Part shown: in pieces, positions 2,751 through 20,766 of the stretch
How positions within the stretch are numbered: the stretch's first letter is position 1
How the letters are laid out: every line of letters starts with the position of its first letter
Assembly (NCBI GenBank): GCA_038851755.1
Contig: JAWCKR010000001.1
Span: 53,637 to 117,636 of the forward strand
Source of the DNA: Candidatus Hadarchaeales archaeon
Lineage (GTDB): Archaea; Hadarchaeota; Hadarchaeia; Hadarchaeales; WYZ-LMO6
Direction: 5' to 3'
DNA length: 64,000 nt
Notes under the pieces: generated by a model
What the model saw: the letters and a program-made list of their open reading frames with translations, nothing else
What the model was told of the DNA's origin: nothing
The model's database searches: none
Program-made: the position numbers and the translations under genes

Positions 2751-6834
<4,084 letters not shown>

Positions 6835-10168: not shown

Positions 10169-10423
10169 CTATCCCTCCACCACGTATCTGTACGCCACCG
10201 TTCTCCCTGCCGTGAAGCTCTCCCTCTTGATCTCCACGATATCCCCGGGCTTCGCCCCTATGACCCTCGCCACCGGGTCTGAACTCTTCAGCAGGGGAAG
10301 CTGATGGGGCCTCACCCTGTACCTCTTCAGGACCTCTTCCCCCTCCTCCTTTGACAGTACTCTATGCTCAGGCACCAGCGCGTGCCCCCGGGGATCGAAC
10401 TCCTCACTCATCCTCCCGCCCAT
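10169..10423 (-). CDS. rpoH: DNA-directed RNA polymerase subunit H (Rpb5 homologue)
   Basis: 84 aa; [51 protein letters not shown] matches the RpoH family. ATG 10423..10421 lies 1 nt from the tRNA-Lys 3' end. Confidence 0.9.
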
Positions 10424-10424
10424 A

Positions 10425-10499
10425 CGGGCCTGGTGGGATTCGAACCCACGACTCCCGGCTTAAAAGGCCGGTGCGCTAGCCAGACTGCGCTACAGGCCC
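10425..10499 (-). tRNA. tRNA-Lys (anticodon UUU)
   Basis: Reverse strand GGGCCTGTAGCGCAGTCTGGCTAGCGCACCGGCCTTTTAAGCCGGGAGTCGTGGGTTCGAATCCCACCAGGCCCG. 7-bp acceptor stem, D-arm GCGC/GCGC, anticodon stem CCGGC/GCCGG with loop CTTTTAA, T-arm GTGGG-TTCGAAT-CCCAC, discriminator G, no encoded CCA; 75 nt. Confidence 0.9.
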
Positions 10500-10524
10500 A
10501 ACTAACGGAGGGGTCGAAACTACT

Positions 10525-10600: not shown

Positions 10601-12082
10601 TCACTCGGCTTCGTATACCCTCCCCTTCTCCACCTCTCCCCTCTCGAACCTCTCCCTCATCTCGTCCGCTATCTTCTGCGCCAGGGGGGTGGGGTATTTC
10701 CCCGTGAGGCAGCCGAGACAGAGTTCCTCCCTCTTCATCCCCGTTGCCCTCACGAAGCCCTCCAGGGACTGATAGTGAACGGAGTCCGCCCCTATCAGGC
10801 GGGCTATCTCCTCCTCCCGGTGGGTGGAGCCTATCAGCTCCCCGAAGGTGGCCATATCTATGCCATAAAAGCAGGGGGAAAGGATGCGCGGAAAGGTGAA
10901 GTACATGTGGACCTCCGCGGCCCCGGCCATCCTGAGCTTCCTTATCACCCTCCTGGAGGTGTCACCCCTCACTATCGAGTCCTCCACCACCGCTATCCTC
11001 TTTCCCTTGAGGCTCTCCGTGACGTTGATCTTCTTGGAAATGATCTTCTCCCTCTCCTCGGAACTCGAGATGAAGGCCCGGTCCACCACATACCTGTGCC
11101 TCCTCACTCCCCTTTCCCAGGGTATGCCCGTGACCTCGTGCATTCCATAAGCCGCATCGTCACCCGTGGAGGGTATGGAGACTATCGCATCCACCCTTCT
11201 CTCGAGCTCCGGGTCTTCTCTGGCCAGGTTCCTCCCGAACTCCTCCCTCACCTTATAAACTGGCCTGCCATCGTGGAGCACGGAGTCGGGCCTGGCGAAG
11301 TAGGCGAACTCGAAGCTGCAGAAGGCCCTCCTCTCCCCCTCCACTATCTTCTCCCTCCTGGCCCCCTGCCCGGACCATATCAGCAGCTCCCCAGGCTGGA
11401 CCTCCGCCTCGTACCTGAACTCGTTTATGTCCAACCCCACGCTCTCGGAAGAAACAGCGAAGGTCTGGTTGTCCGGGCTGCAGCCGTAGCACAGTGGCTT
11501 TATCCCCAGCGGGTCCCGGAAGGCGAAGAGCTCCCCCCTCTGTGTGATGCCCACCACGGAGAAGGCCCCTTCCACTTCCCTCATACAGCCTTCCACCGCC
11601 GAAACCAAGTCGGAGTTCTTCAACCCCTTAAGCAGCTTCCTGGAGAGAAGCTCTATGTCGGAGGAGGAGCAGGAGGGACCCCTCGTCTTCCCCCTCAGCT
11701 CCGCCCTGAGTTCCTTCACATTCACCAGATTTCCATTGAAGGCCAAAGCCACCCTCTCCTCCCCCCCCATCACAAAGGGCTGTATGTCCCTGAGGAGCCA
11801 GTATCTGGTGCTCCTTCCGGAGGTGGCGTACCTCACGTGCCCCATCCCCACGTGGCTCTTGAAAGCCCGGAAAAGCCTTCTCACCACGGGATGCCTCACG
11901 GGTGGGAGCAGGCCGAGGGAGCGGTGGGTGAAGAAGTCCCCCTCCCTGAACTCCGCGAACCCGTGAGAGTGATGTCCCCGATGGTTCTGGGAGATTAAAC
12001 CCCAGTACACGTAGGGGAAGACCCCCTTGCCCTCAAAATCGAAAGCACCGAAGACCCCGCAGGACTCTCCAGAAACTTCCAC
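10601..12082 (-). CDS. purF: Amidophosphoribosyltransferase (glutamine PRPP amidotransferase)
   Basis: Short propeptide MEVSGES then CGVFG N-terminal nucleophile Cys. C-terminal PRTase domain (VVEDSIVRGDTS) and Fe-S Cys ligands (CLGCLTGKYP). Confidence 0.95.
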   Translation of the reverse strand: MEVSGESCGVFGAFDFEGKGVFPYVYWGLISQNHRGHHSHGFAEFREGDFFTHRSLGLLPPVRHPVVRRLFRAFKSHVGMGHVRYATSGRSTRYWLLRDIQPFVMGGEERVALAFNGNLVNVKELRAELRGKTRGPSCSSSDIELLSRKLLKGLKNSDLVSAVEGCMREVEGAFSVVGITQRGELFAFRDPLGIKPLCYGCSPDNQTFAVSSESVGLDINEFRYEAEVQPGELLIWSGQGARREKIVEGERRAFCSFEFAYFARPDSVLHDGRPVYKVREEFGRNLAREDPELERRVDAIVSIPSTGDDAAYGMHEVTGIPWERGVRRHRYVVDRAFISSSEEREKIISKKINVTESLKGKRIAVVEDSIVRGDTSRRVIRKLRMAGAAEVHMYFTFPRILSPCFYGIDMATFGELIGSTHREEEIARLIGADSVHYQSLEGFVRATGMKREELCLGCLTGKYPTPLAQKIADEMRERFERGEVEKGRVYEAE

Positions 12083-12113: not shown

Positions 12114-12956
12114 TTAAAATTTCTTTCCCGTAACTCTCTCGTAGCACTCGACGTACTTCTTGGAGGTCTGGAGAACGACCTCGGGAGGGAGGCGGGGGGC
12201 TGGGGGCTTCTTGTCCCATCCCACGCTGATCAGGTAATCCCTCACGTACTGCTTGTCGAAGCTCGGGGGGTCCTTCCCCTCCTGGTACCCCTCCAAAGGC
12301 CAGAAGCGGGAGGAGTCCGGGGTTAGAACCTCATCTATCAGGAGAAGCTCCCCACGGCTGGAGCCGAACTCGAACTTGGTGTCGGCTATCAGAACTCCCC
12401 TCTTCTCGGCCAAGGAAAAGGCCCTCTCGTAAAGGGAAAGGGAGAGCTCCCTGATCTCCTCCGCCACTTTCCTTCCCAGTCTCTCCACCACCTCCTCCCA
12501 CCGCACCTCCCTGTCGTGCCCGCTCTCCTCCTTGGTGGTGGGGGTGAGAAGGGGCTCCGGCAGCCTGGAGGCCTTCTTGAGGCCTGGAGGCAAATGAACC
12601 CCGCACACGCTCTTGCCAGCCGCATAGCTCTCCCAGGCTGACCCGTACAGGAAGCCCCTGACGATGAACTCGAAGGGGAAAGGGGAGGCCTTCCTCACCA
12701 GCATGCTCCTTCCGTCCACCGCCTCCACGAAGTGGCTCGGAACATCACTGAAGAGGTTGAACCAGAAAACGGAGAGCCTGTTCAGGGCCTCACCCTTGTG
12801 GGGAATGCCGTTCGGGAGCACCACATCGAAGGCCGAAATCCTGTCGGTGGAAACCACGAGGAGGTTTTCCCCCAGCTCGTAAATGTCCCTGACCTTCCCC
12901 CTCTTGTAGAGTTTGAGGGGAAGCTCCGATTGTAAGAGGGGCTCCTCTACCTCCAT
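12114..12956 (-). CDS. purC: Phosphoribosylaminoimidazole-succinocarboxamide synthase (SAICAR synthetase)
   Basis: 280 aa; ...LYKRGKVRDIYE...ADTKFEFG... typical PurC. 10-nt overlap with purE. Confidence 0.93.
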   Translation of the reverse strand: MEVEEPLLQSELPLKLYKRGKVRDIYELGENLLVVSTDRISAFDVVLPNGIPHKGEALNRLSVFWFNLFSDVPSHFVEAVDGRSMLVRKASPFPFEFIVRGFLYGSAWESYAAGKSVCGVHLPPGLKKASRLPEPLLTPTTKEESGHDREVRWEEVVERLGRKVAEEIRELSLSLYERAFSLAEKRGVLIADTKFEFGSSRGELLLIDEVLTPDSSRFWPLEGYQEGKDPPSFDKQYVRDYLISVGWDKKPPAPRLPPEVVLQTSKKYVECYERVTGKKF

Positions 12957-13426
12957 CCTCTCACAGCAGATTCGTCCGCGGAGAGGACTTCTTCCCTCCT
13001 CCTCCTCTGCCAGGAAGAGAGCTTCTCCGCCAGTCCTCTGTCCAACAGGGAGAGGATTTTGGCGGCTGCCAGGGCCGCCCCCTCCGGGTCCATCACCACC
13101 AGGGGGGCCACACCCTTGGGCATGCGCAGGGAGGAGAAGATGTCAAGGGGAAAGCTCTCCACCTTCACGGGGCAGGCTATCACGGGATGTCTCACCTGTG
13201 CGTCCACCATCCCGGAGAGAGCGTTGGACCTTCCCGCGAACGTGAGGTAGACCAGCTCCTCCCCGCTGCGCTCGTATTCCTCCAGCATCCGCAGGAGCCT
13301 ATCGGGGGTCTTGTGGGCGGAGGCCACCCGCTCCTCGAACCTCACCCCAAGCTCCCTCAGGAGGGCCCTGGCGGGCTCCGCGAACTCCACATCCGCCCTG
13401 GACCCGTAGAGGACTACGACCTTCAC
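12947..13426 (-). CDS. purE: N5-carboxyaminoimidazole ribonucleotide mutase / AIR carboxylase catalytic subunit
   Basis: 159 aa; MKVVVLYGSRADVEFAEPA...ASAHKTPDRL...FAGRSNALSGMV typical PurE fold. Confidence 0.9.
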   Translation of the reverse strand: MKVVVLYGSRADVEFAEPARALLRELGVRFEERVASAHKTPDRLLRMLEEYERSGEELVYLTFAGRSNALSGMVDAQVRHPVIACPVKVESFPLDIFSSLRMPKGVAPLVVMDPEGAALAAAKILSLLDRGLAEKLSSWQRRRREEVLSADESAVRGWR

Positions 13427-13463
13427 TGCACCCGGGAGAGGGTCGGTGGGGAAGTTTTTAATC

Positions 13464-13859
13464 CTACCGCCCTCGTCCAGCTTTCGACTCCCGGCGGCCC
13501 ATCGCTTCTTCCACGGCCTTCTTGATCATCCTCTTGGGTGGATAGGGGTAGTGCCTCCCCCCGTAGAAGTAAACCCTGCACCCGAGCTTGCACTCCCTTC
13601 GAACGAAATGACCAGCGCTCTCGGCAAGCTCCTCGCAAGAAGGGCACCTCCCCTTCGTGACCTCCTCTTGAACATCCCTACCATCCACCAGCACGGTGGG
13701 CGAACCCAAAAACCCGTGCTCCTTGGCCTTTTCCTCCGTGTCTATCAGTATTTCTTCCACCTCCGCTTTTACCCCCAGTTCTCTCAGGACCTCTCTGACC
13801 ACCTCCTTGGTCTTCAGGCACCATGGGCAGTCCAATATGTACAGAATCTGAATCTTCAC
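13464..13859 (-). CDS. Thioredoxin/glutaredoxin-fold protein (CPWC active site) with a C-terminal Cys-rich (CPSC...C..C) extension, embedded in the pur operon
   Basis: KVKIQILYILDCPWCLKTKEVVREVL...GSPTVLVDG is a Trx fold; tail ...GRCPSCEELAESAGHFVRRECKLGC. The track ORF begins at GTG 13928 inside purQ with no RBS. GTG at 13859 follows the purQ stop, preceded by GAGGGAAAGAAG; preferred start. Confidence 0.6.
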   Translation of the reverse strand: MKIQILYILDCPWCLKTKEVVREVLRELGVKAEVEEILIDTEEKAKEHGFLGSPTVLVDGRDVQEEVTKGRCPSCEELAESAGHFVRRECKLGCRVYFYGGRHYPYPPKRMIKKAVEEAMGRRESKAGRGR

Positions 13860-13873
13860 CTTCTTTCCCTCGA

Positions 13874-14665
13874 TTATCTCCTTAAATTCTCCACTATGGA
13901 AGAGAAGATCTTTCTCCCGTCGCCCCACTCGGGAGGAGAATCACCCCCCGTCCAGTCGGGAAGCTGCCAGCCGAAGACCGCCCTCTCCGGATGGGGCATC
14001 AGGCCCATGATCCTGCCCGTGGAGTCGCATATGCCTGCAATATCGAAGAAGGACCCGTTGGGGTTCACCGGGTACCTCCCGCCCGCTGGCCTCCCCCTCC
14101 GGTCGCAGTACCTGAAGACCAGCTGATCCTTCTCACGGAGCTTCCTCAGGTACTCCTTCTCCCTGCCCGCCGGGAAAAGGAACTTCCCCTCCGCATGCGC
14201 CACGGGCATCCTCACCACCTCCCCCTTCCTCATCCCCCTCGTGAAGAGGCACTTCCCGCCGTTCTCCACCCTCAGATATGTCCACCTGCACTCGAACTTC
14301 GCCGAGTTGTTGAGGGCAAGGGCCGCCTGCACCTCCCCCCACTTGAAGCCTGGCAGGAGACCCGCCTCCACCAGCACCTGAAAGCCGTTGCAGATCCCCA
14401 GGATGGCCCCTCCTCCCTCCACGAACTCCCTAAGGACGGGGAGCATCCTCCCGGCAAGCTCCTTGCCCATGATCGCACCTGCCCTCACCCTGTCCCCGAA
14501 GGAGAAGCCACCGGGAATCACCAGCACGTCGTATCCCCTCAGTCCCTCCTCCAGCATCCTCCTGAAGTGGACCAGCTCCACCTCCGCACCAGCCTCCTCC
14601 AGAGCAACCTTCGTCTCGCCGTCGCAGTTGGTCCCGCCCGCCCTCACGACACAGGCCCTCACCAC
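13874..14665 (-). CDS. purQ: Phosphoribosylformylglycinamidine synthase subunit PurQ (glutaminase)
   Basis: VVRACVVRAGGTNCDGE...ILGICNGFQVLVEAGLLPG...MPHPER is a class-I glutamine amidotransferase triad. GTG start overlaps the purL stop (gcGTGGTGAgg). The track ORF (to 14986) is a Gly-rich over-extension running into purL. Confidence 0.9.
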   Translation of the reverse strand: MVRACVVRAGGTNCDGETKVALEEAGAEVELVHFRRMLEEGLRGYDVLVIPGGFSFGDRVRAGAIMGKELAGRMLPVLREFVEGGGAILGICNGFQVLVEAGLLPGFKWGEVQAALALNNSAKFECRWTYLRVENGGKCLFTRGMRKGEVVRMPVAHAEGKFLFPAGREKEYLRKLREKDQLVFRYCDRRGRPAGGRYPVNPNGSFFDIAGICDSTGRIMGLMPHPERAVFGWQLPDWTGGDSPPEWGDGRKIFSSIVENLRR

Positions 14666-17269: not shown

Positions 17270-18411
17270 GCCCTCCACCCGTACTCGAACTTTCCGGTTC
17301 CGCTCTTTATGATCACCCGGTTCCCCCCCTTTCCCCTTTCGCACCTCCCTATCACCCCTGCCTCCAGCTTAAATCCCTCCGAAACCCTCACCACCTCCTC
17401 CACGTCCTCCGGGTCCACCACCAGCTCAAAACCCACCCCCATGTTGAACACCTCGTACATCTCCCTCCACTCCACCCTCCCCTCCCTCTGCACGAGGAGG
17501 AAGATGGGATCGGGCTCGGGCAACCGGTCCTTCACATAAACGAGGTTCTTCCCCACCCTCAAACTCTTGGTGAGGCCTCCTCCCGTGTTGTGCACCATGA
17601 GCTTCACCCCTTCCCCCACCCTCTTGAGGATCCTCAGAACTACGGGAGCGAAGACGCGGGTGGGTGAGAGGATGGCCTCCCCCACCGTCATGCCCAGCTC
17701 GTCCAGATAATCGTCGAACCTGAACCTGCCCCGGTAACCCCCCCTGTCCACGAGCTCGGGATACCTCCGGGTGTACTCCCCCCTCATGAGCACGTGCCTG
17801 GCGAGGGTGATGCCGTTGCACATCATGCCGCTGTTTTCCCTCTTCTCGTACCTCGTCCTCCCTCCGCTCCTGAGGCCCACGATCAAATCTCCCGCTTTCA
17901 CCCTCTCCCCCTTCCTCACCTCCGACAACCTCACTCTGGCCGCCAGGACACCGGCGAGGTCCAGCGTCCTCACCTGATCGGGAAGATCCGCCGTCTCCCC
18001 GCCCAGGAAAGGTATCTCCAGCCCCAGGGCCTCCAGCTCCTTGAGGGCCCTCCGGAAGCCGGAAACCAGGTGGAAGAGGAGCTCGCGCTTGGGGAGGAGG
18101 CGGGGGTTGAGGGTGAGGTAGTCCGCGAAGGCGAGGGGGTGGAAGGGACCCACGCAGACCACGTCGTCCACGTTCATGGCCAGGACATCCTGGGCCAGCC
18201 CCTCGAACCAGGACGGGTCCCCGGTCTCCCTCCAGTGGAGGTAGCTCTGCTGGGGCTTGCTCCCCGCCCCATCAGCATGCAGGATCAGCCCCGTCTCCCT
18301 TCCCTCCCTCCCCACCGGGCAGAAGGGTACCAAATCCGCGTCCAGGAGGGAGAGGAAGAGTTCCGTTCCCTCCTTCTTCGCGTCCACTCCTAGGGAACGG
18401 TAGAGGCTCAA
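17266..18411 (-). CDS. purM: Phosphoribosylformylglycinamidine cyclo-ligase (AIR synthetase)
   Basis: 381 aa AIRS/AIRS_C two-domain protein (...GGETADLPD...; ...NTGGGLTKSL...). Position in pur operon. ATGA overlap with the folD stop. Confidence 0.88.
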   Translation of the reverse strand: MSLYRSLGVDAKKEGTELFLSLLDADLVPFCPVGREGRETGLILHADGAGSKPQQSYLHWRETGDPSWFEGLAQDVLAMNVDDVVCVGPFHPLAFADYLTLNPRLLPKRELLFHLVSGFRRALKELEALGLEIPFLGGETADLPDQVRTLDLAGVLAARVRLSEVRKGERVKAGDLIVGLRSGGRTRYEKRENSGMMCNGITLARHVLMRGEYTRRYPELVDRGGYRGRFRFDDYLDELGMTVGEAILSPTRVFAPVVLRILKRVGEGVKLMVHNTGGGLTKSLRVGKNLVYVKDRLPEPDPIFLLVQREGRVEWREMYEVFNMGVGFELVVDPEDVEEVVRVSEGFKLEAGVIGRCERGKGGNRVIIKSGTGKFEYGWRA

Positions 18412-19277
18412 CCCTTTCCCCCCAGCGCCTCCGAGGCCAGGAGGGTGTTGTGGAGGAGCATCACGCGCGTCATGGGGCCCACCCCGCCAGGCACGGGCGC
18501 GAGGTGGGAGGCCTTTCGGCTCACCCCCTCAGGGTCCGCATCCCCCATCAGCTTCCCGCCCACGTAGTTCATGCCCACATCCACCACCACGGCACCCTCC
18601 CCCACCATTTCCTCGGTGAGGATGAAGGAAGGCCTCCTCCCCACCGCCGAGACCAGCAGCTCGGCTTCCCTGGTCCTCTCCTCCAGTTTCTTCGTCTTGG
18701 AGTGGCAGAGGAGGACGCTGGCATCCCTGTCCAAAAGGAGCTTGGCCAGGGGCTTCCCCACCAGGTCACTCCTGTTGATGATGACCGCCAGCTTCCCCCT
18801 CACCTCTATCCTGTACTTGTCCAGCAGCCTCAGGATGCCCTTGGGCGTGCACGGGAGGAGGCTTCTCTCTGGATCGTACTGTCCCTTCCACAGCTTCCCC
18901 ACGTTGTAGGGGTGGAGGCCGTCCACATCCTTTTCTGGGGAGATCTCCTCCACCAGACGCTTCGGGTCAAGGTGGGGAGGAACGGGGAGCTGCACGAAGA
19001 TTCCGTGAACTCTCCTGTCCTCGTTCAGACGGTGGATGAGCCCCTCCAGCTCCCCCTCCTCCACGGAAGAGGGAAAAGCGTGCAGCTCGAAGGAGATTCC
19101 CACCTCCGCGCAGTCCCTCCTCTTCCCCTCCACATAGATCTTGGAGGCCGGGTTGTCCCCCACCAGAAGGGTGGCAAGGGTGGGGGTTATCCCCCTCCTC
19201 TTCAGGCCCGCGACCCTCGCGCGCAGTTCCACCTTAATTTCTTCGGCCAGGGCCTTCCCGTCCATGAGCACGACCAT
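18408..19277 (-). CDS. folD: Bifunctional 5,10-methylene-tetrahydrofolate dehydrogenase / methenyl-THF cyclohydrolase
   Basis: MVVLMDGKALAEEIKVELRARVAGLKRRGITPTLATLLVGDNPASKIYV...VPGGVGPMTRVMLL is a canonical FolD. Confidence 0.9.
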   Translation of the reverse strand: MVVLMDGKALAEEIKVELRARVAGLKRRGITPTLATLLVGDNPASKIYVEGKRRDCAEVGISFELHAFPSSVEEGELEGLIHRLNEDRRVHGIFVQLPVPPHLDPKRLVEEISPEKDVDGLHPYNVGKLWKGQYDPERSLLPCTPKGILRLLDKYRIEVRGKLAVIINRSDLVGKPLAKLLLDRDASVLLCHSKTKKLEERTREAELLVSAVGRRPSFILTEEMVGEGAVVVDVGMNYVGGKLMGDADPEGVSRKASHLAPVPGGVGPMTRVMLLHNTLLASEALGGKG

Positions 19278-19285
19278 GCTCTCCC

Positions 19286-20734
19286 TCAGAAGGAGGGAGT
19301 CGCCTTCTTCCCCAGCCTCTCCGCGTACCTGGAGAGCACCGGGGCCACCTCCCTCTCAAGAAAGCGATCGCACCTCTCCACGGCATCCCCCACATGCCTG
19401 GAGGGGTCGAGGACCTCCTCCAGCTCCTCAGGCGTCAGGAGACGACCCACCACGGGATCCTCCCTCAGAAGGGAAGGCAGGGGATTCTCCCTTCCTTCCC
19501 TGACCCTCTCCCAAGCCTGGAAGGAAAGCTTCCTCAGCCTCTCGTGCATCTCCTGCCTGTTCTCCCCCTTCCTCACCAGAAGCATCAGGAGGGGCTCCAG
19601 GGCGGAGAAGGGGGAGAAGAGCTTGAGGTTGCGGGTGATCATGGCCTGGTTCACCGTCATCCCCTCCACCACCTTCTGATATACCATAAGAACTTCTTCC
19701 ACCGCCAGGAAGCTCTCCGCTATGATCACCCTTCGGTTGGCGGAATCATCCAGGGTGCGCTCGAGAAGGGTGTGGGAGGCGTTCTCCCAGGCCACCCTGG
19801 GCAGGGAGGCCACGTACCTGGCCAGCGAGCACATGCGCTCCGAGAGGACGGGATTGCGCTTGAAGGGCATGGCGGAGGAGCCCACCTGCGCCTCCCCCAG
19901 GGGCTCGGAGAGCTCCCCCCACACGGGTGAGTGCAGGTGCCTGAGGTCGGCCCCGAACTTGTGGGCGCTCTGGGCTATCCCTGCCAGAACGGAGAGGACC
20001 ATGAAGTCCAGCTTCCTGGGGGCGGTCTGCCCCGAGATGGTGAAGTAGGAAAGGCCCAGCTTCTCCATCACCTTGGCCTCAAGCTCCGCAGGTTCGGCCT
20101 TTCCCCCAAGCAACCTCTTGAAGCTGGCGGAGGTTCCCACCGCCCCCTTCACTCCCTTCCCCTTCAGAAACTCTGAGAGCAGAAGCTCCACCGCCCTCAG
20201 GTCGAGGAGGAGGTCCTGGGCGTAGAAAGCCAGCCTGTACCCCACCGTGGTGGGCTCGGCCGGCTGGAGGTGGGTCCAGCCCATGCAGACGGTGGCCCTG
20301 TGCTCCTTTATCCTGAGGGAGAGGGAATGGAGGCAGTTGACCAGCCTGGTGAGGAGGAGGTCGAGGGCCCTCCTCATCCTCAGCACGTCCGCGTTGTCCT
20401 CTATGTCCATCGAGGTGGCCCCGAGGTGGAGCTTCCCTCCCCCTCTGGGACACTGCTGGGAGAAGACCTTGAGCTCCGCCATGAGGTCGTGCCTTATTTC
20501 CTTCTCCACCCTCTGGGAGAGCTCCAGGTCCACATGTTCCTTCCCCGCCTTCTCCCTGATCTCCCTCAGCTCCTCCTCGGAGATCAGACCGTACTCCGCC
20601 TGGGCCTCGGCCAGTGCTTTCCACACCTTCCTCCAGAGGGCCCTGTACTCCAGCTCTGAGAAGAGGGAGCGCATCTCCTCGCTCCCGTATCTCCAAGTGA
20701 AGGGAGACAGAAAGGTACGGTAGTCGAAGCCCAT
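19286..20734 (-). CDS. purB: Adenylosuccinate lyase
   Basis: 482 aa; ...GATSMDIEDNAD..., ...HLQPAEPTTVGYRLA..., signature ...GSSAMPFKRNP... of the fumarase/ASL family. Confidence 0.93.
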   Translation of the reverse strand: MGFDYRTFLSPFTWRYGSEEMRSLFSELEYRALWRKVWKALAEAQAEYGLISEEELREIREKAGKEHVDLELSQRVEKEIRHDLMAELKVFSQQCPRGGGKLHLGATSMDIEDNADVLRMRRALDLLLTRLVNCLHSLSLRIKEHRATVCMGWTHLQPAEPTTVGYRLAFYAQDLLLDLRAVELLLSEFLKGKGVKGAVGTSASFKRLLGGKAEPAELEAKVMEKLGLSYFTISGQTAPRKLDFMVLSVLAGIAQSAHKFGADLRHLHSPVWGELSEPLGEAQVGSSAMPFKRNPVLSERMCSLARYVASLPRVAWENASHTLLERTLDDSANRRVIIAESFLAVEEVLMVYQKVVEGMTVNQAMITRNLKLFSPFSALEPLLMLLVRKGENRQEMHERLRKLSFQAWERVREGRENPLPSLLREDPVVGRLLTPEELEEVLDPSRHVGDAVERCDRFLEREVAPVLSRYAERLGKKATPSF

Positions 20735-20756: not shown

Positions 20757-20766
20757 GGTTTTTAAC
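20757..20766. promoter_or_regulatory. Shared A/T box (GGTTTTTAAC) centred 28 nt from both divergent start codons (purB ATG 20734, purH ATG 20790)
   Basis: 55-nt divergent spacer. The single TTTTTAA element is equidistant from both ATGs; purine-rich runs (ggaggagagagggggagg / aggagaggaagg) flank it on each side. Confidence 0.4.

Follow-up and report, generated by a model that had tools for sequence, protein, structure and literature searches.

In their 2010 study, Pawlowski et al. placed both DUF2703 and ArsD among the families new to the thioredoxin-like clan, and they also reported DUF2703-ArsD fusions (PMC3091736). The NCBIfam family NF049942, also named 'Hypothetical protein DF', appears in a list of predicted selenoprotein families with its function given as unknown (PMC13188914), and a Rhodococcus ars cluster that is induced by arsenate includes a DUF2703 gene (PMC6514093). 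Both DUF2703 and NF049942 are catalogued, uncharacterised families, to which the protein described here adds a member; no biochemistry for any DUF2703 or DF protein was found in the literature naming these families. The combined DUF2703/DF group is large, with about 850 clusters at E<=1e-10. The new member is encoded between purQ and purE in a 64-kb window, that is, the whole stretch of DNA analysed, from Candidatus Hadarchaeales archaeon. All positions below follow the numbering of this window, and the features of the locus are collected in Table 1.

Table 1. Coordinates of the DUF2703 gene, its motifs and its surroundings at the purQ-purE junction.
Feature	Position	Strand	Evidence or remarks
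purQ, 262 aa, upstream neighbour	13874..14662	minus	GATase_5 + TIGR01737
14-nt spacer after purQ stop	13860..13873	minus	TCGAGGGAAAGAAG; Shine-Dalgarno-like GAGGG 7 nt before GTG
Upstream in-frame extension of the longest ORF (probably not translated with the DUF2703 protein)	13860..13928	minus	GTG at 13928; overlaps purQ 3' end
DUF2703 / DF-family thioredoxin-fold CDS, 131 aa	13464..13859	minus	GTG start, TAG included; Pfam + NCBIfam, homologues, public calls
CPWC motif (C11-C14), N-terminus of helix 1	13818..13829	minus	translation; subfamily conservation; model helix 12-28
GSPT loop (G52-T55), thioredoxin cis-proline position	13695..13706	minus	conservation; aligns with 'vPt/a' loop of MJ0307
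Cys cluster C72-P-S-C75 ... C90-K-L-G-C94	13578..13646	minus	translation; subfamily conservation
37-nt spacer before purE	13427..13463	minus	TATA-like TTAAAAA at 13455-13461, 28 nt before purE GTG
purE, 159 aa, downstream neighbour	12947..13426	minus	AIRC + TIGR01162

The longest open reading frame at the locus encodes 154 aa and overlaps the purQ end by 55 nt. The preliminary description correctly recognised a real frame, which lies on the minus strand. Its coordinates, 13464-13928, begin too far upstream, but the start that it described in words, the GTG at 13859-13857, is the supported one. The 115 homologues are about 121-131 aa long and begin with MKIQ/E-LLY at the point matching this codon, and most of the aligned homologues lack the N-terminal extension. 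The 131-aa form is also called on the near-identical public contigs L087 and L089; the longer start was chosen by some gene callers (P0001, and a 151-aa variant on L090). A 226-aa antisense frame on the plus strand (13446-14126) was rejected as a high-GC artefact. The spacings described earlier are exact: a GTG with a ribosome-binding site lies 14 nt past the purQ stop (TAA at 13876-13874), with GAGGG in the spacer, and the gene ends with TAG at 13466-13464, 37 nt ahead of the purE GTG at 13426.

The protein matches Pfam DUF2703 (PF10865) with 48.5 bits against a gathering cut-off of 23.6 (E 1.1e-12, profile positions 20-119 of 120), and NCBIfam NF049942, 'DF family (seleno)protein', with 86.1 bits against a cut-off of 70 (E 1.2e-24, the full profile, 1-96 of 96). 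The Pfam Thioredoxin_3 model is matched as well (39.8 bits, cut-off 24.8, E 4.6e-10). A precomputed DUF2703 match is common to all of the 100+ close homologues. Scores fell short of the cut-offs for the MTH895/ArsE family TIGR00412 (26.2 bits, cut-off 62), for Glutaredoxin PF00462 (20 bits, gathering cut-off 22.9) and for the equivalog model TIGR00411 of MJ0307 thioredoxin (39 bits, cut-off 92.75), of which the protein is a relative and not a member. The AlphaFold model (pLDDT 85.3) has the order beta-alpha-beta-alpha-beta-beta...alpha, so that the thioredoxin-like fold expected of a DUF2703 protein, and proposed earlier for this CPWC protein, is borne out by the Pfam and NCBIfam profiles and by the model. 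The DUF2703 signature is complete, comprising C11, C14, G52-S-P-T55, C72, C75, C90, C94-R-x-Y97 and P107-P108. Neither an internal stop nor an in-frame TGA that could encode selenocysteine interrupts the window ORF, and every candidate position is occupied by cysteine; because the name of NF049942 allows Cys forms, the absence of selenocysteine does not exclude membership. Distant tblastn matches that start only at residue 21 had raised the possibility of an in-frame selenocysteine codon, and their translation gave an ordinary CxxC together with a divergent N-terminus.

The close subfamily is tight and mainly archaeal, and this archaeal CPWC / CLPC / ECxCGC group falls into one 50%-identity cluster. 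It extends over Hadarchaeota, Nitrososphaeria, several DPANN lineages and Methanoperedens, and also occurs in CPR and WOR-3 bacteria. The CPWC motif is highly conserved in this subfamily (C11 in 113/114 sequences, W13 in 108/114, C14 in 109/114), and so is the GSPT loop, in which S53 is invariant and P54 is found in 111/114. The preliminary description also reported a Cys-rich tail with the pattern CPSC...(18)...C..C. The additional conserved cluster does exist, but its spacing reads CPSC-x14-C-x3-C, and it is no C-terminal appendage: it sits in an internal insertion of roughly 40 residues (about 66-106) that separates strand 4 from the last helix. Here C94 is invariant (114/114), C72 and C75 are each kept in 110/114 sequences and C90 in 109/114. 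A seventh subfamily cysteine, at position 92 in 94/114 sequences, is Leu in the window protein, which thus retains six of the seven. The insertion is modelled at pLDDT 70-82. Helix 73-79 carries C72 and C75 at its N-terminal end, helix 84-92 has C90 at its end, and strand 94-99 begins with C94.

The position between purQ and purE is confirmed by the family matches of both flanking genes. The window purQ product is 100% identical to P0116 of Candidatus Hadarchaeales, and the gene is also called on L087; four public contigs encode an identical PurE and preserve the gene order, and the near-identical contigs L087-L090, which share the window's PurE, keep the order purQ-DUF2703-purE. The 37-nt spacer ahead of purE contains no Shine-Dalgarno sequence. 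Its TTAAAAA box is a motif that occurs five times in the 64 kb, where 0.37 copies would be expected; one of the others precedes the purB start by 24 nt, and an A-rich box before purE is kept in the related contigs L091 and L093. From its sequence and position, this box is a probable internal promoter for purE-purC-purF. The gene had been placed inside a translationally coupled operon; it is indeed closely coupled to purQ, with which it is presumably co-transcribed, but the TATA-like box separates it from purE. The arrangement points to a pur cluster made up, in this archaeon, of two transcription units joined at the purQ-purE junction. The base composition of the DUF2703 gene is atypical, with a GC3 of 0.712 compared with 0.81-0.91 in ten neighbouring genes. 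The only RNA detected by an Rfam scan of the window was a tRNA-Lys; the scan gave no riboswitch and no other RNA close to the gene.

The linkage to purine genes was assessed by tblastn of nine Pur/FolD proteins of the window, together with RpoB and RpoH, against 80 homologue loci. A pur gene lies within 8 kb at one of these genome loci, which is at or below chance. This weak case is bacterial (L019) and has PurE(+PurC) about 1.9 kb away. Eight further metagenome loci had no pur gene (0/8), and a Pfam census of the neighbours at 20 close-subfamily loci revealed neither a pur family nor any conserved partner. The contexts of the homologues are varied and include GatD/GatE, DHH, ribosomal proteins, RpiB and a MarR-HMA-P-type ATPase group. 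Conserved linkage of the kind that would mark a purine-operon accessory protein is thus absent. The earlier proposal of a redox partner or regulatory switch for PurF, PurL or PurQ fails by the refuting condition it had set for itself, as the homologues show practically no association with pur genes (1/80, 0/8 and 0/20), and the neighbourhood comparison it had called for shows that the linkage is not conserved across lineages and that the sister copy is a pseudogene.

This sister copy was found in L091/L092, whose PurQ is 88% identical to that of the window. The slot between purQ and purE is occupied there by a 382-nt remnant of the DUF2703 gene, in which the start codon has changed from GTG to ATA and CPWC to CPSL, an 8-nt deletion shifts the frame, and a 54-nt deletion removes C72-C90 of the Cys insert. 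The remnant still shares with the window protein the unique tail AVEEAMG, and purL, purQ, purE, purC and purF are intact around it. In a more distant relative (L093, PurQ 79% identical) the purQ-purE gap is 204 nt long and yielded no significant remnant of the gene; in L094 (PurQ 65% identical) purQ and purE are 17 nt apart, with nothing between them. Within the window species the frame is intact in six independent contigs. The variants there comprise about six synonymous and four non-synonymous changes, two of the latter in the unconserved tail, so that synonymous variants are in the majority although synonymous sites are about 3-fold fewer. One population variant, R129*, removes the last three residues. 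On these comparisons the gene appears to be under purifying selection in the window species. Decay in the sister lineage indicates that the gene is dispensable there, and not necessarily so in the window species. The 14-nt spacing from purQ together with purifying selection leaves room for lineage-specific co-option.

We consider the most probable reading, at roughly 60%, to be that the gene encodes a stand-alone DUF2703/DF protein with a general Cys-based redox or metal-binding role and is itself a passenger located at an operon junction. As the relatives show accidental arrival and then decay in the sister lineage, we do not regard it as a component of the purine pathway. The CPWC dithiol, where helix 1 begins, would face the conserved cis-Pro loop and may bind a ligand or carry out thiol-disulfide exchange in the manner of small archaeal thioredoxins. 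The insertion would leave from a loop adjoining the CPWC site, bringing C72, C75, C90 and C94 with it, and these residues most likely hold a metal ion or a thiophilic metalloid, for example in a Zn(Cys)4-type site; both the oxidoreductase activity and the metal binding are predictions from sequence. The gene probably entered the junction of purQ with the putative purE promoter before the window species and its sister lineage diverged from their common ancestor. In the window species it would now be read through from purM-S-L-Q as a passenger on which purifying selection persists, and in the sister lineage it has decayed.

The alternative that survives best, a possible but clearly minor one, is a chaperone or sensor of thiophilic metals or metalloids, whose six cysteines would bind As(III), Hg, Cu or Cd or pass the ions to a transporter, a mechanism put forward for ArsD-like proteins of the thioredoxin fold, with no role as a disulfide reductase. 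It is consistent with the contexts of the bacterial genes, which lie in modules of ArsR, an ArsP_1 permease, Thioredoxin_3 and Acr3: in a Pfam census of 26 bacterial long-form loci, the ArsP_1 permease was a neighbour in 17, ArsR in 14 and Thioredoxin_3 in 7. The arsenate-induced Rhodococcus cluster (PMC6514093), the fusions of DUF2703 to MerT and HMA, and a MarR-DUF2703-(CC-motif membrane protein)-HMA-P-type ATPase arrangement around a member of the close subfamily itself (L013/L085) point the same way. In the whole family, moreover, only C11 of the active site and C94 of the hairpin are universal, and most short forms have His or Tyr at the second CxxC position (monothiol CPNH, CPNY), which is atypical of a dithiol reductase. 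However, a scan of some 14 kb surrounding the gene showed no metal-resistance gene, metal genes are rare among the 20 close-subfamily loci, and CPWC and the cis-Pro loop are strictly conserved, just as they are in genuine thioredoxins. The metal leaning of these contexts in the wider family also speaks for the metal side of the leading reading. As the ArsR/permease context is mostly missing from the close archaeal subfamily, the metal role is transferred from distant relatives, and we do not apply the bacterial context directly to the window gene.

The cysteines could also be read as ligands of an iron-sulfur centre. Among 141 family representatives, C14 co-occurs with the Cys-rich insert in 12/15 cases, so the insert may build a single site with the active-site region. 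We think it improbable that the archaeal subfamily is a distinct, horizontally mobile metalloprotein with a composite metal/Fe-S centre that was co-opted here to protect the Fe-S enzyme PurF. Somewhat less probable still is an iron-sulfur protein proper, a thioredoxin-like ferredoxin or Fe-S carrier in which the Cys cluster, possibly with C11/C14, would ligate a [2Fe-2S] or [4Fe-4S] cluster. The six to seven conserved cysteines and the same co-occurrence would suit it, as would the neighbours of two homologues, one adjoining NifS-NifU on the same strand with a 10-nt gap (L020) and one near NifS/NifU (L016); but these are only 2/20 loci, no Fe-S family model of Pfam or NCBIfam is matched, and the spacing CxxC-x14-C-x(1)-C-x-C to our knowledge fits no standard Fe-S motif.

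A lineage-specific helper of purine synthesis would have been co-opted to keep the oxygen-labile [4Fe-4S]/Cys1 enzyme PurF, or the thiols of PurQ and PurL, in the reduced state, its dosage matched by co-expression. The location 14 nt past purQ with its own SD-like GAGGG, the intact and apparently selected frame, and the bacterial locus with purE-purC nearby are in its favour. The window PurF also has a C-terminal CxxC, which we take to be typical of the Fe-S-type (B. subtilis-type) enzyme. Against it, the linkage is absent at 79 of the 80 genome loci and at all eight further metagenome loci, the gene has decayed in the sister lineage, where all of the flanking pur genes remain intact, and other relatives have no such gene altogether. 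In addition, the TATA-like box divides the gene from purE-purC-purF, and the protein is therefore not co-translated with PurF. Such a role is very unlikely and appears close to refuted by the comparative data. Least probable of all is a neutral passenger of no use that is itself being lost, as might be suggested by the pseudogene at the same site in the sister lineage, by the departures of the window protein from the consensus (L73P, C92L and a 3-residue deletion in the insert) and by R129*, but hardly agrees with a frame intact in six independent contigs, with the retention of all near-invariant cysteines and the GSPT loop, or with the excess of synonymous variants given the number of synonymous sites.

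The DUF2703 gene in the pur operon is most probably an ordinary passenger, and its guilt-by-association link to purine synthesis is removed, with little consequence for purine biology. The locus illustrates that a small mobile gene can occupy a core operon without belonging to it, and offers a natural experiment, with the gene intact in one of three related lineages, reduced to a pseudogene in the second and absent from the site in the third. The locus also draws attention to DUF2703/DF as a sizeable uncharacterised family of Cys-rich thioredoxin-fold proteins, whose universal Cys pair and metal-linked contexts merit biochemistry.

Several described proteins combine similar elements. Trx2 zinc-finger thioredoxins join the thioredoxin fold to four extra Zn-binding cysteines in CxxC-type pairs. 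The window protein likewise has four additional cysteines, but in an internal insertion and beside a CPWC motif, whereas Trx2 has an N-terminal Zn finger and a WCGPC active site, and the two are related by fold only, not by sequence. ArsD resembles the window protein in that the active-site region of a thioredoxin fold is rebuilt as a multi-Cys metalloid-binding site, a putative one in our case; in contrast to ArsD, the window protein has no match to the ArsD HMM, and the annotated region around the gene contains no arsA or other ars genes. MTH895/ArsE (TIGR00412; 1ILO) and the Thioredoxin_3 family are similar as small stand-alone CxxC proteins, and members of the latter neighbour bacterial DUF2703 genes; they lack the Cys-rich insertion.

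Among solved structures, the best sequence matches are MJ0307 (1FO5) and MTH807 (1NHO), with E-values of 2.6e-7 and 2.4e-6. Their alignment covers residues 1-60 and the last helix, leaving window residues 61-109 as an insertion. The layout beta1-CPxC-alpha1-beta2-alpha2-cisPro-beta3 and the final helix are common to all three proteins, while MJ0307 and MTH807 have neither the Cys insertion of roughly 40 residues nor the C-R-x-Y hairpin. The hairpin is shared with NF049942, as are the active-site Cys and the GSPT loop, but this 96-position model describes a short form without the CxxC...C insertion, and the window protein is an all-Cys one. The bacterial DUF2703 long forms of the ArsR/ArsP_1-permease modules are 31-40% identical to the window protein. 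They differ from it by an extra N-terminal Cys-rich stretch and by the motif of the insert, CxxC-x3-C as against CxxC-x14-C-x-C-x-C in the archaeal subfamily. They have in common with it the thioredoxin fold, the CxxC, the S-P-T cis-Pro loop, the Cys insertion after strand 4, and the C-R-x-Y/W ... PPK segment with the final helix.

The gene between purQ and purE (the DUF2703 gene; Pfam PF10865) would encode a general cysteine-based redox or metal-binding protein and ride along in the pur cluster as a passenger, a joint reading to which we give a probability of about 0.6. The passenger status is well supported, and the redox or metal biochemistry is inferred. The cluster comprises purB, folD, purM, purS, purL, purQ, the DUF2703 gene, purE, purC and purF, in this order.

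Features of the purine cluster and its surroundings (window coordinates)
Feature	Position	Strand	Remark
TTAAAAA box	20759-20765	-	24 nt before the purB start
purB	19286-20734	-	
folD	18408-19277	-	between purB and purM
purQ	13874-14662	-	
226-aa ORF	13446-14126	+	antisense over the DUF2703 gene; spurious
DUF2703 gene	13464-13859	-	GTG start 13859
TTAAAAA box	13455-13461	-	28 nt ahead of the purE GTG
purE	12947-13426	-	
purF	10601-12082	-	
tRNA-Lys(TTT)	10424-10500	-	between purF and rpoH
rpoH-rpoB			beyond purF and tRNA-Lys

The preliminary description correctly recognized a gene at this place, with a GTG and a good RBS 14 nt past the purQ stop and an end 37 nt before purE. The purQ stop is a TAA, GAGGG stands 7 nt upstream of the GTG, and purE likewise starts with GTG. 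The coordinates 13464-13928 belong to the longest ORF (154 aa), which begins at a GTG within purQ, giving a 55-nt overlap between the two genes. We prefer the GTG at 13859, since it is supported by comparison with homologs: all 115 of 115 database homologs are ~121-131 aa long and begin with MKIQ/E-LLY at this point. The resulting 131-aa form was also chosen by gene callers on near-identical public contigs. Longest-ORF starts are over-extended in purQ (370 vs. 262 aa) and purS (109 vs. 84 aa) as well, and long spurious antisense ORFs such as the 226-aa one are numerous in the window at 64% GC. The 3' end of tRNA-Lys directly adjoins position 10423, where the longest rpoH ORF begins; rpoH may therefore really start at an ATG 12 nt downstream (MSEEF...).

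The encoded protein passes the Pfam profiles DUF2703 (48.5 bits, cut-off 23.6) and Thioredoxin_3 (39.8 bits) and the NCBIfam profile NF049942 'DF family (seleno)protein' (86.1 bits, cut-off 70); it scored too low for the models of MJ0307 thioredoxin, MTH895/ArsE and glutaredoxin. The strand-helix order of an AlphaFold model built with 114 sequences (pLDDT 85.3) is that of a thioredoxin fold, confirming the proposed CPWC thioredoxin-like protein. Its cysteines are C11-P-W-C14, C72-P-S-C75, C90 and C94, each kept in 109-114 of the 114 subfamily sequences; a seventh, at position 92, occurs in 94 of 114, and the window protein has Leu there. Structure and literature searches found no solved structure or biochemical study of any DUF2703/DF protein, and the gene is a further member of a catalogued but uncharacterized family.

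An exhaustive profile search yielded 3206 clusters at E<=1e-3, 848 at E<=1e-10 and only three at E<=1e-30, so the subfamily of the window protein is essentially a single cluster at 50% identity. Its hosts are Hadarchaeota, Nitrososphaeria, Aenigmarchaeota, Pacearchaeota, Woesearchaeota, Iainarchaeota and Methanoperedens, and also bins labeled CPR, WOR-3 and Gammaproteobacteria (55-69% identity). Beyond this cluster, family members are mostly ~105 aa long and lack the insertion; across the family (database proteins P0236-P0384; loci L022, L027, L036, L044, L068, L077 and L080), short monothiol forms (CPNH, CPNY) make up the majority. Among 141 family representatives, the only near-universal cysteines are C11 and C94, the latter in a C-R-x-Y hairpin; this pair, rather than CxxC, may be the true functional unit of the family. 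Position 14 mostly holds His or Tyr. Where it is Cys, 12 of the 15 sequences carry the Cys-rich insertion, which may reflect joint action of C14 and the inserted cysteines, a lead rather than a test because the representatives share phylogeny.

At 26 loci of bacterial long forms the neighbors include an ArsP_1 permease (17), ArsR (14), Thioredoxin_3 (7) and Acr3 (4), and fusions with MerT and HMA domains occur among the short forms. A report on a Rhodococcus ars cluster (PMC6514093) agrees with this metal(loid) context. As a whole, the family tends towards a role with thiophilic metals or metalloids. A metal(loid) chaperone devoid of reductase activity is a doubtful alternative for the window protein. 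In a Pacearchaeota genome (L085:4478-9409, the L013 region) a close-subfamily gene lies in an apparent mobile metal-resistance island, in the order two integrase fragments, MarR/DUF7343 regulator, DUF2703, CC-motif membrane protein, HMA and P-type ATPase. In a CPR bacterium (L020:73-2161) the genes for NifS (cysteine desulfurase), NifU and DUF2703 are co-stranded with a 10-nt gap, and on a Woesearchaeota contig (L016:1056-3895) NifS/NifU, an ArsR-like gene and a small membrane protein adjoin the DUF2703 copy. These two contexts make an Fe-S link possible in a minority of loci; that the window protein itself is an Fe-S protein is improbable.

The proposal that the protein serves as a redox partner or switch for PurF or PurL/PurQ did not hold up in gene neighborhoods. 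Nine Pur/FolD proteins of the window, RpoB and RpoH were compared by tblastn with 80 homolog-bearing genome loci (flanks of up to 8 kb each). Linkage was found in one, a WOR-3 bacterium (L019), where purE-purC lies ~1.9 kb away with two other genes between; this is at or below chance by our own estimate (~11 pur genes per genome, ~16 genes per locus). Eight further metagenome loci had neighbors of other kinds and no pur genes. No neighbor family was common to 20 close-subfamily loci past lineage-specific synteny (GatD/GatE, DHH phosphoesterases, and NifS/NifU twice). The gene is not linked to purine synthesis in these comparisons, and a purine-related function is not supported; a lineage-specific purine helper is quite improbable. 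As for the cluster itself, folD lies within it, and a more distant Hadarchaeales relative (L096:1-176) has 5-formyl-THF cyclo-ligase directly before purM in place of folD, which suggests that purine synthesis in this group has a one-carbon supply of the folate type.

The order purQ-DUF2703-purE recurs on four near-identical contigs with the exact window PurE (L087-L090); the window stems from a Candidatus Hadarchaeales archaeon, its PurQ is 100% identical to database protein P0116, and a public contig of 12.5 kb matches the window at 99.8% identity. In the closest other lineage, a Hadarchaeales sister lineage (L091/L092; PurQ 88% identical), a 382-nt gap with no called gene separates purQ and purE. 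This gap (4838-5219 in both) is a decayed DUF2703 copy, a pseudogene: ATA stands in place of the start GTG and CPSL in place of CPWC, the frame is shifted past ~codon 37 by the loss of 8 nt, and the C72-C90 segment is missing through a 54-nt deletion. The otherwise unique tail AVEEAMG is common to the remnant and the window protein, and full-length purL, purQ, purE, purC and purF flank the remnant. No remnant was detected in the 204-nt purQ-purE gap of the PurQ-79% lineage (L093); the distance is 17 nt in the PurQ-65% lineage, and another gene follows purQ in the PurQ-63% lineage. The GC3 of the DUF2703 gene (0.712 vs. 0.81-0.91 in ten neighboring genes) is atypical for the genome and compatible with a gene that is foreign or was relocated. 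Within the window species, six contigs carry it intact, with ~six synonymous and four non-synonymous variants; two of these four fall in the unconserved tail. The gene is therefore still maintained in this species. A neutral gene heading for loss is very improbable. The side-by-side occurrence of intact copy, pseudogene and empty site is, together with the uncharacterized family, the main interest of the locus.

The claim that the gene lies inside a translationally coupled pur operon stands for its closeness to purQ, but a putative promoter box precedes purE. The 37-nt spacer has no Shine-Dalgarno sequence and contains one of five TTAAAAA occurrences in the 64-kb, 64%-GC window (0.37 expected). 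The A-rich box is kept at this site in L091 and L093, with diverged flanks. It is a putative internal archaeal promoter for purE-purC-purF, suggesting two transcription units and a very short or absent purE leader. If so, the DUF2703 gene would come last (3') in the purM-S-L-Q unit, at a permissive junction rather than within a translationally coupled block.

The nearest solved proteins by sequence profile are the small archaeal thioredoxins MJ0307 (1FO5) and MTH807 (1NHO). Because they align with residues 1-60 and the last helix only, the extra Cys cluster, previously taken for a C-terminal tail, is present but forms an internal insertion of ~40 residues that separates strand 4 from the last helix. 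The loop in this position flanks the active site across thioredoxin folds. The four additional conserved cysteines of this adjacent insertion would most likely hold a metal ion, and the CPWC dithiol would face the cis-Pro loop as in the small archaeal thioredoxins.
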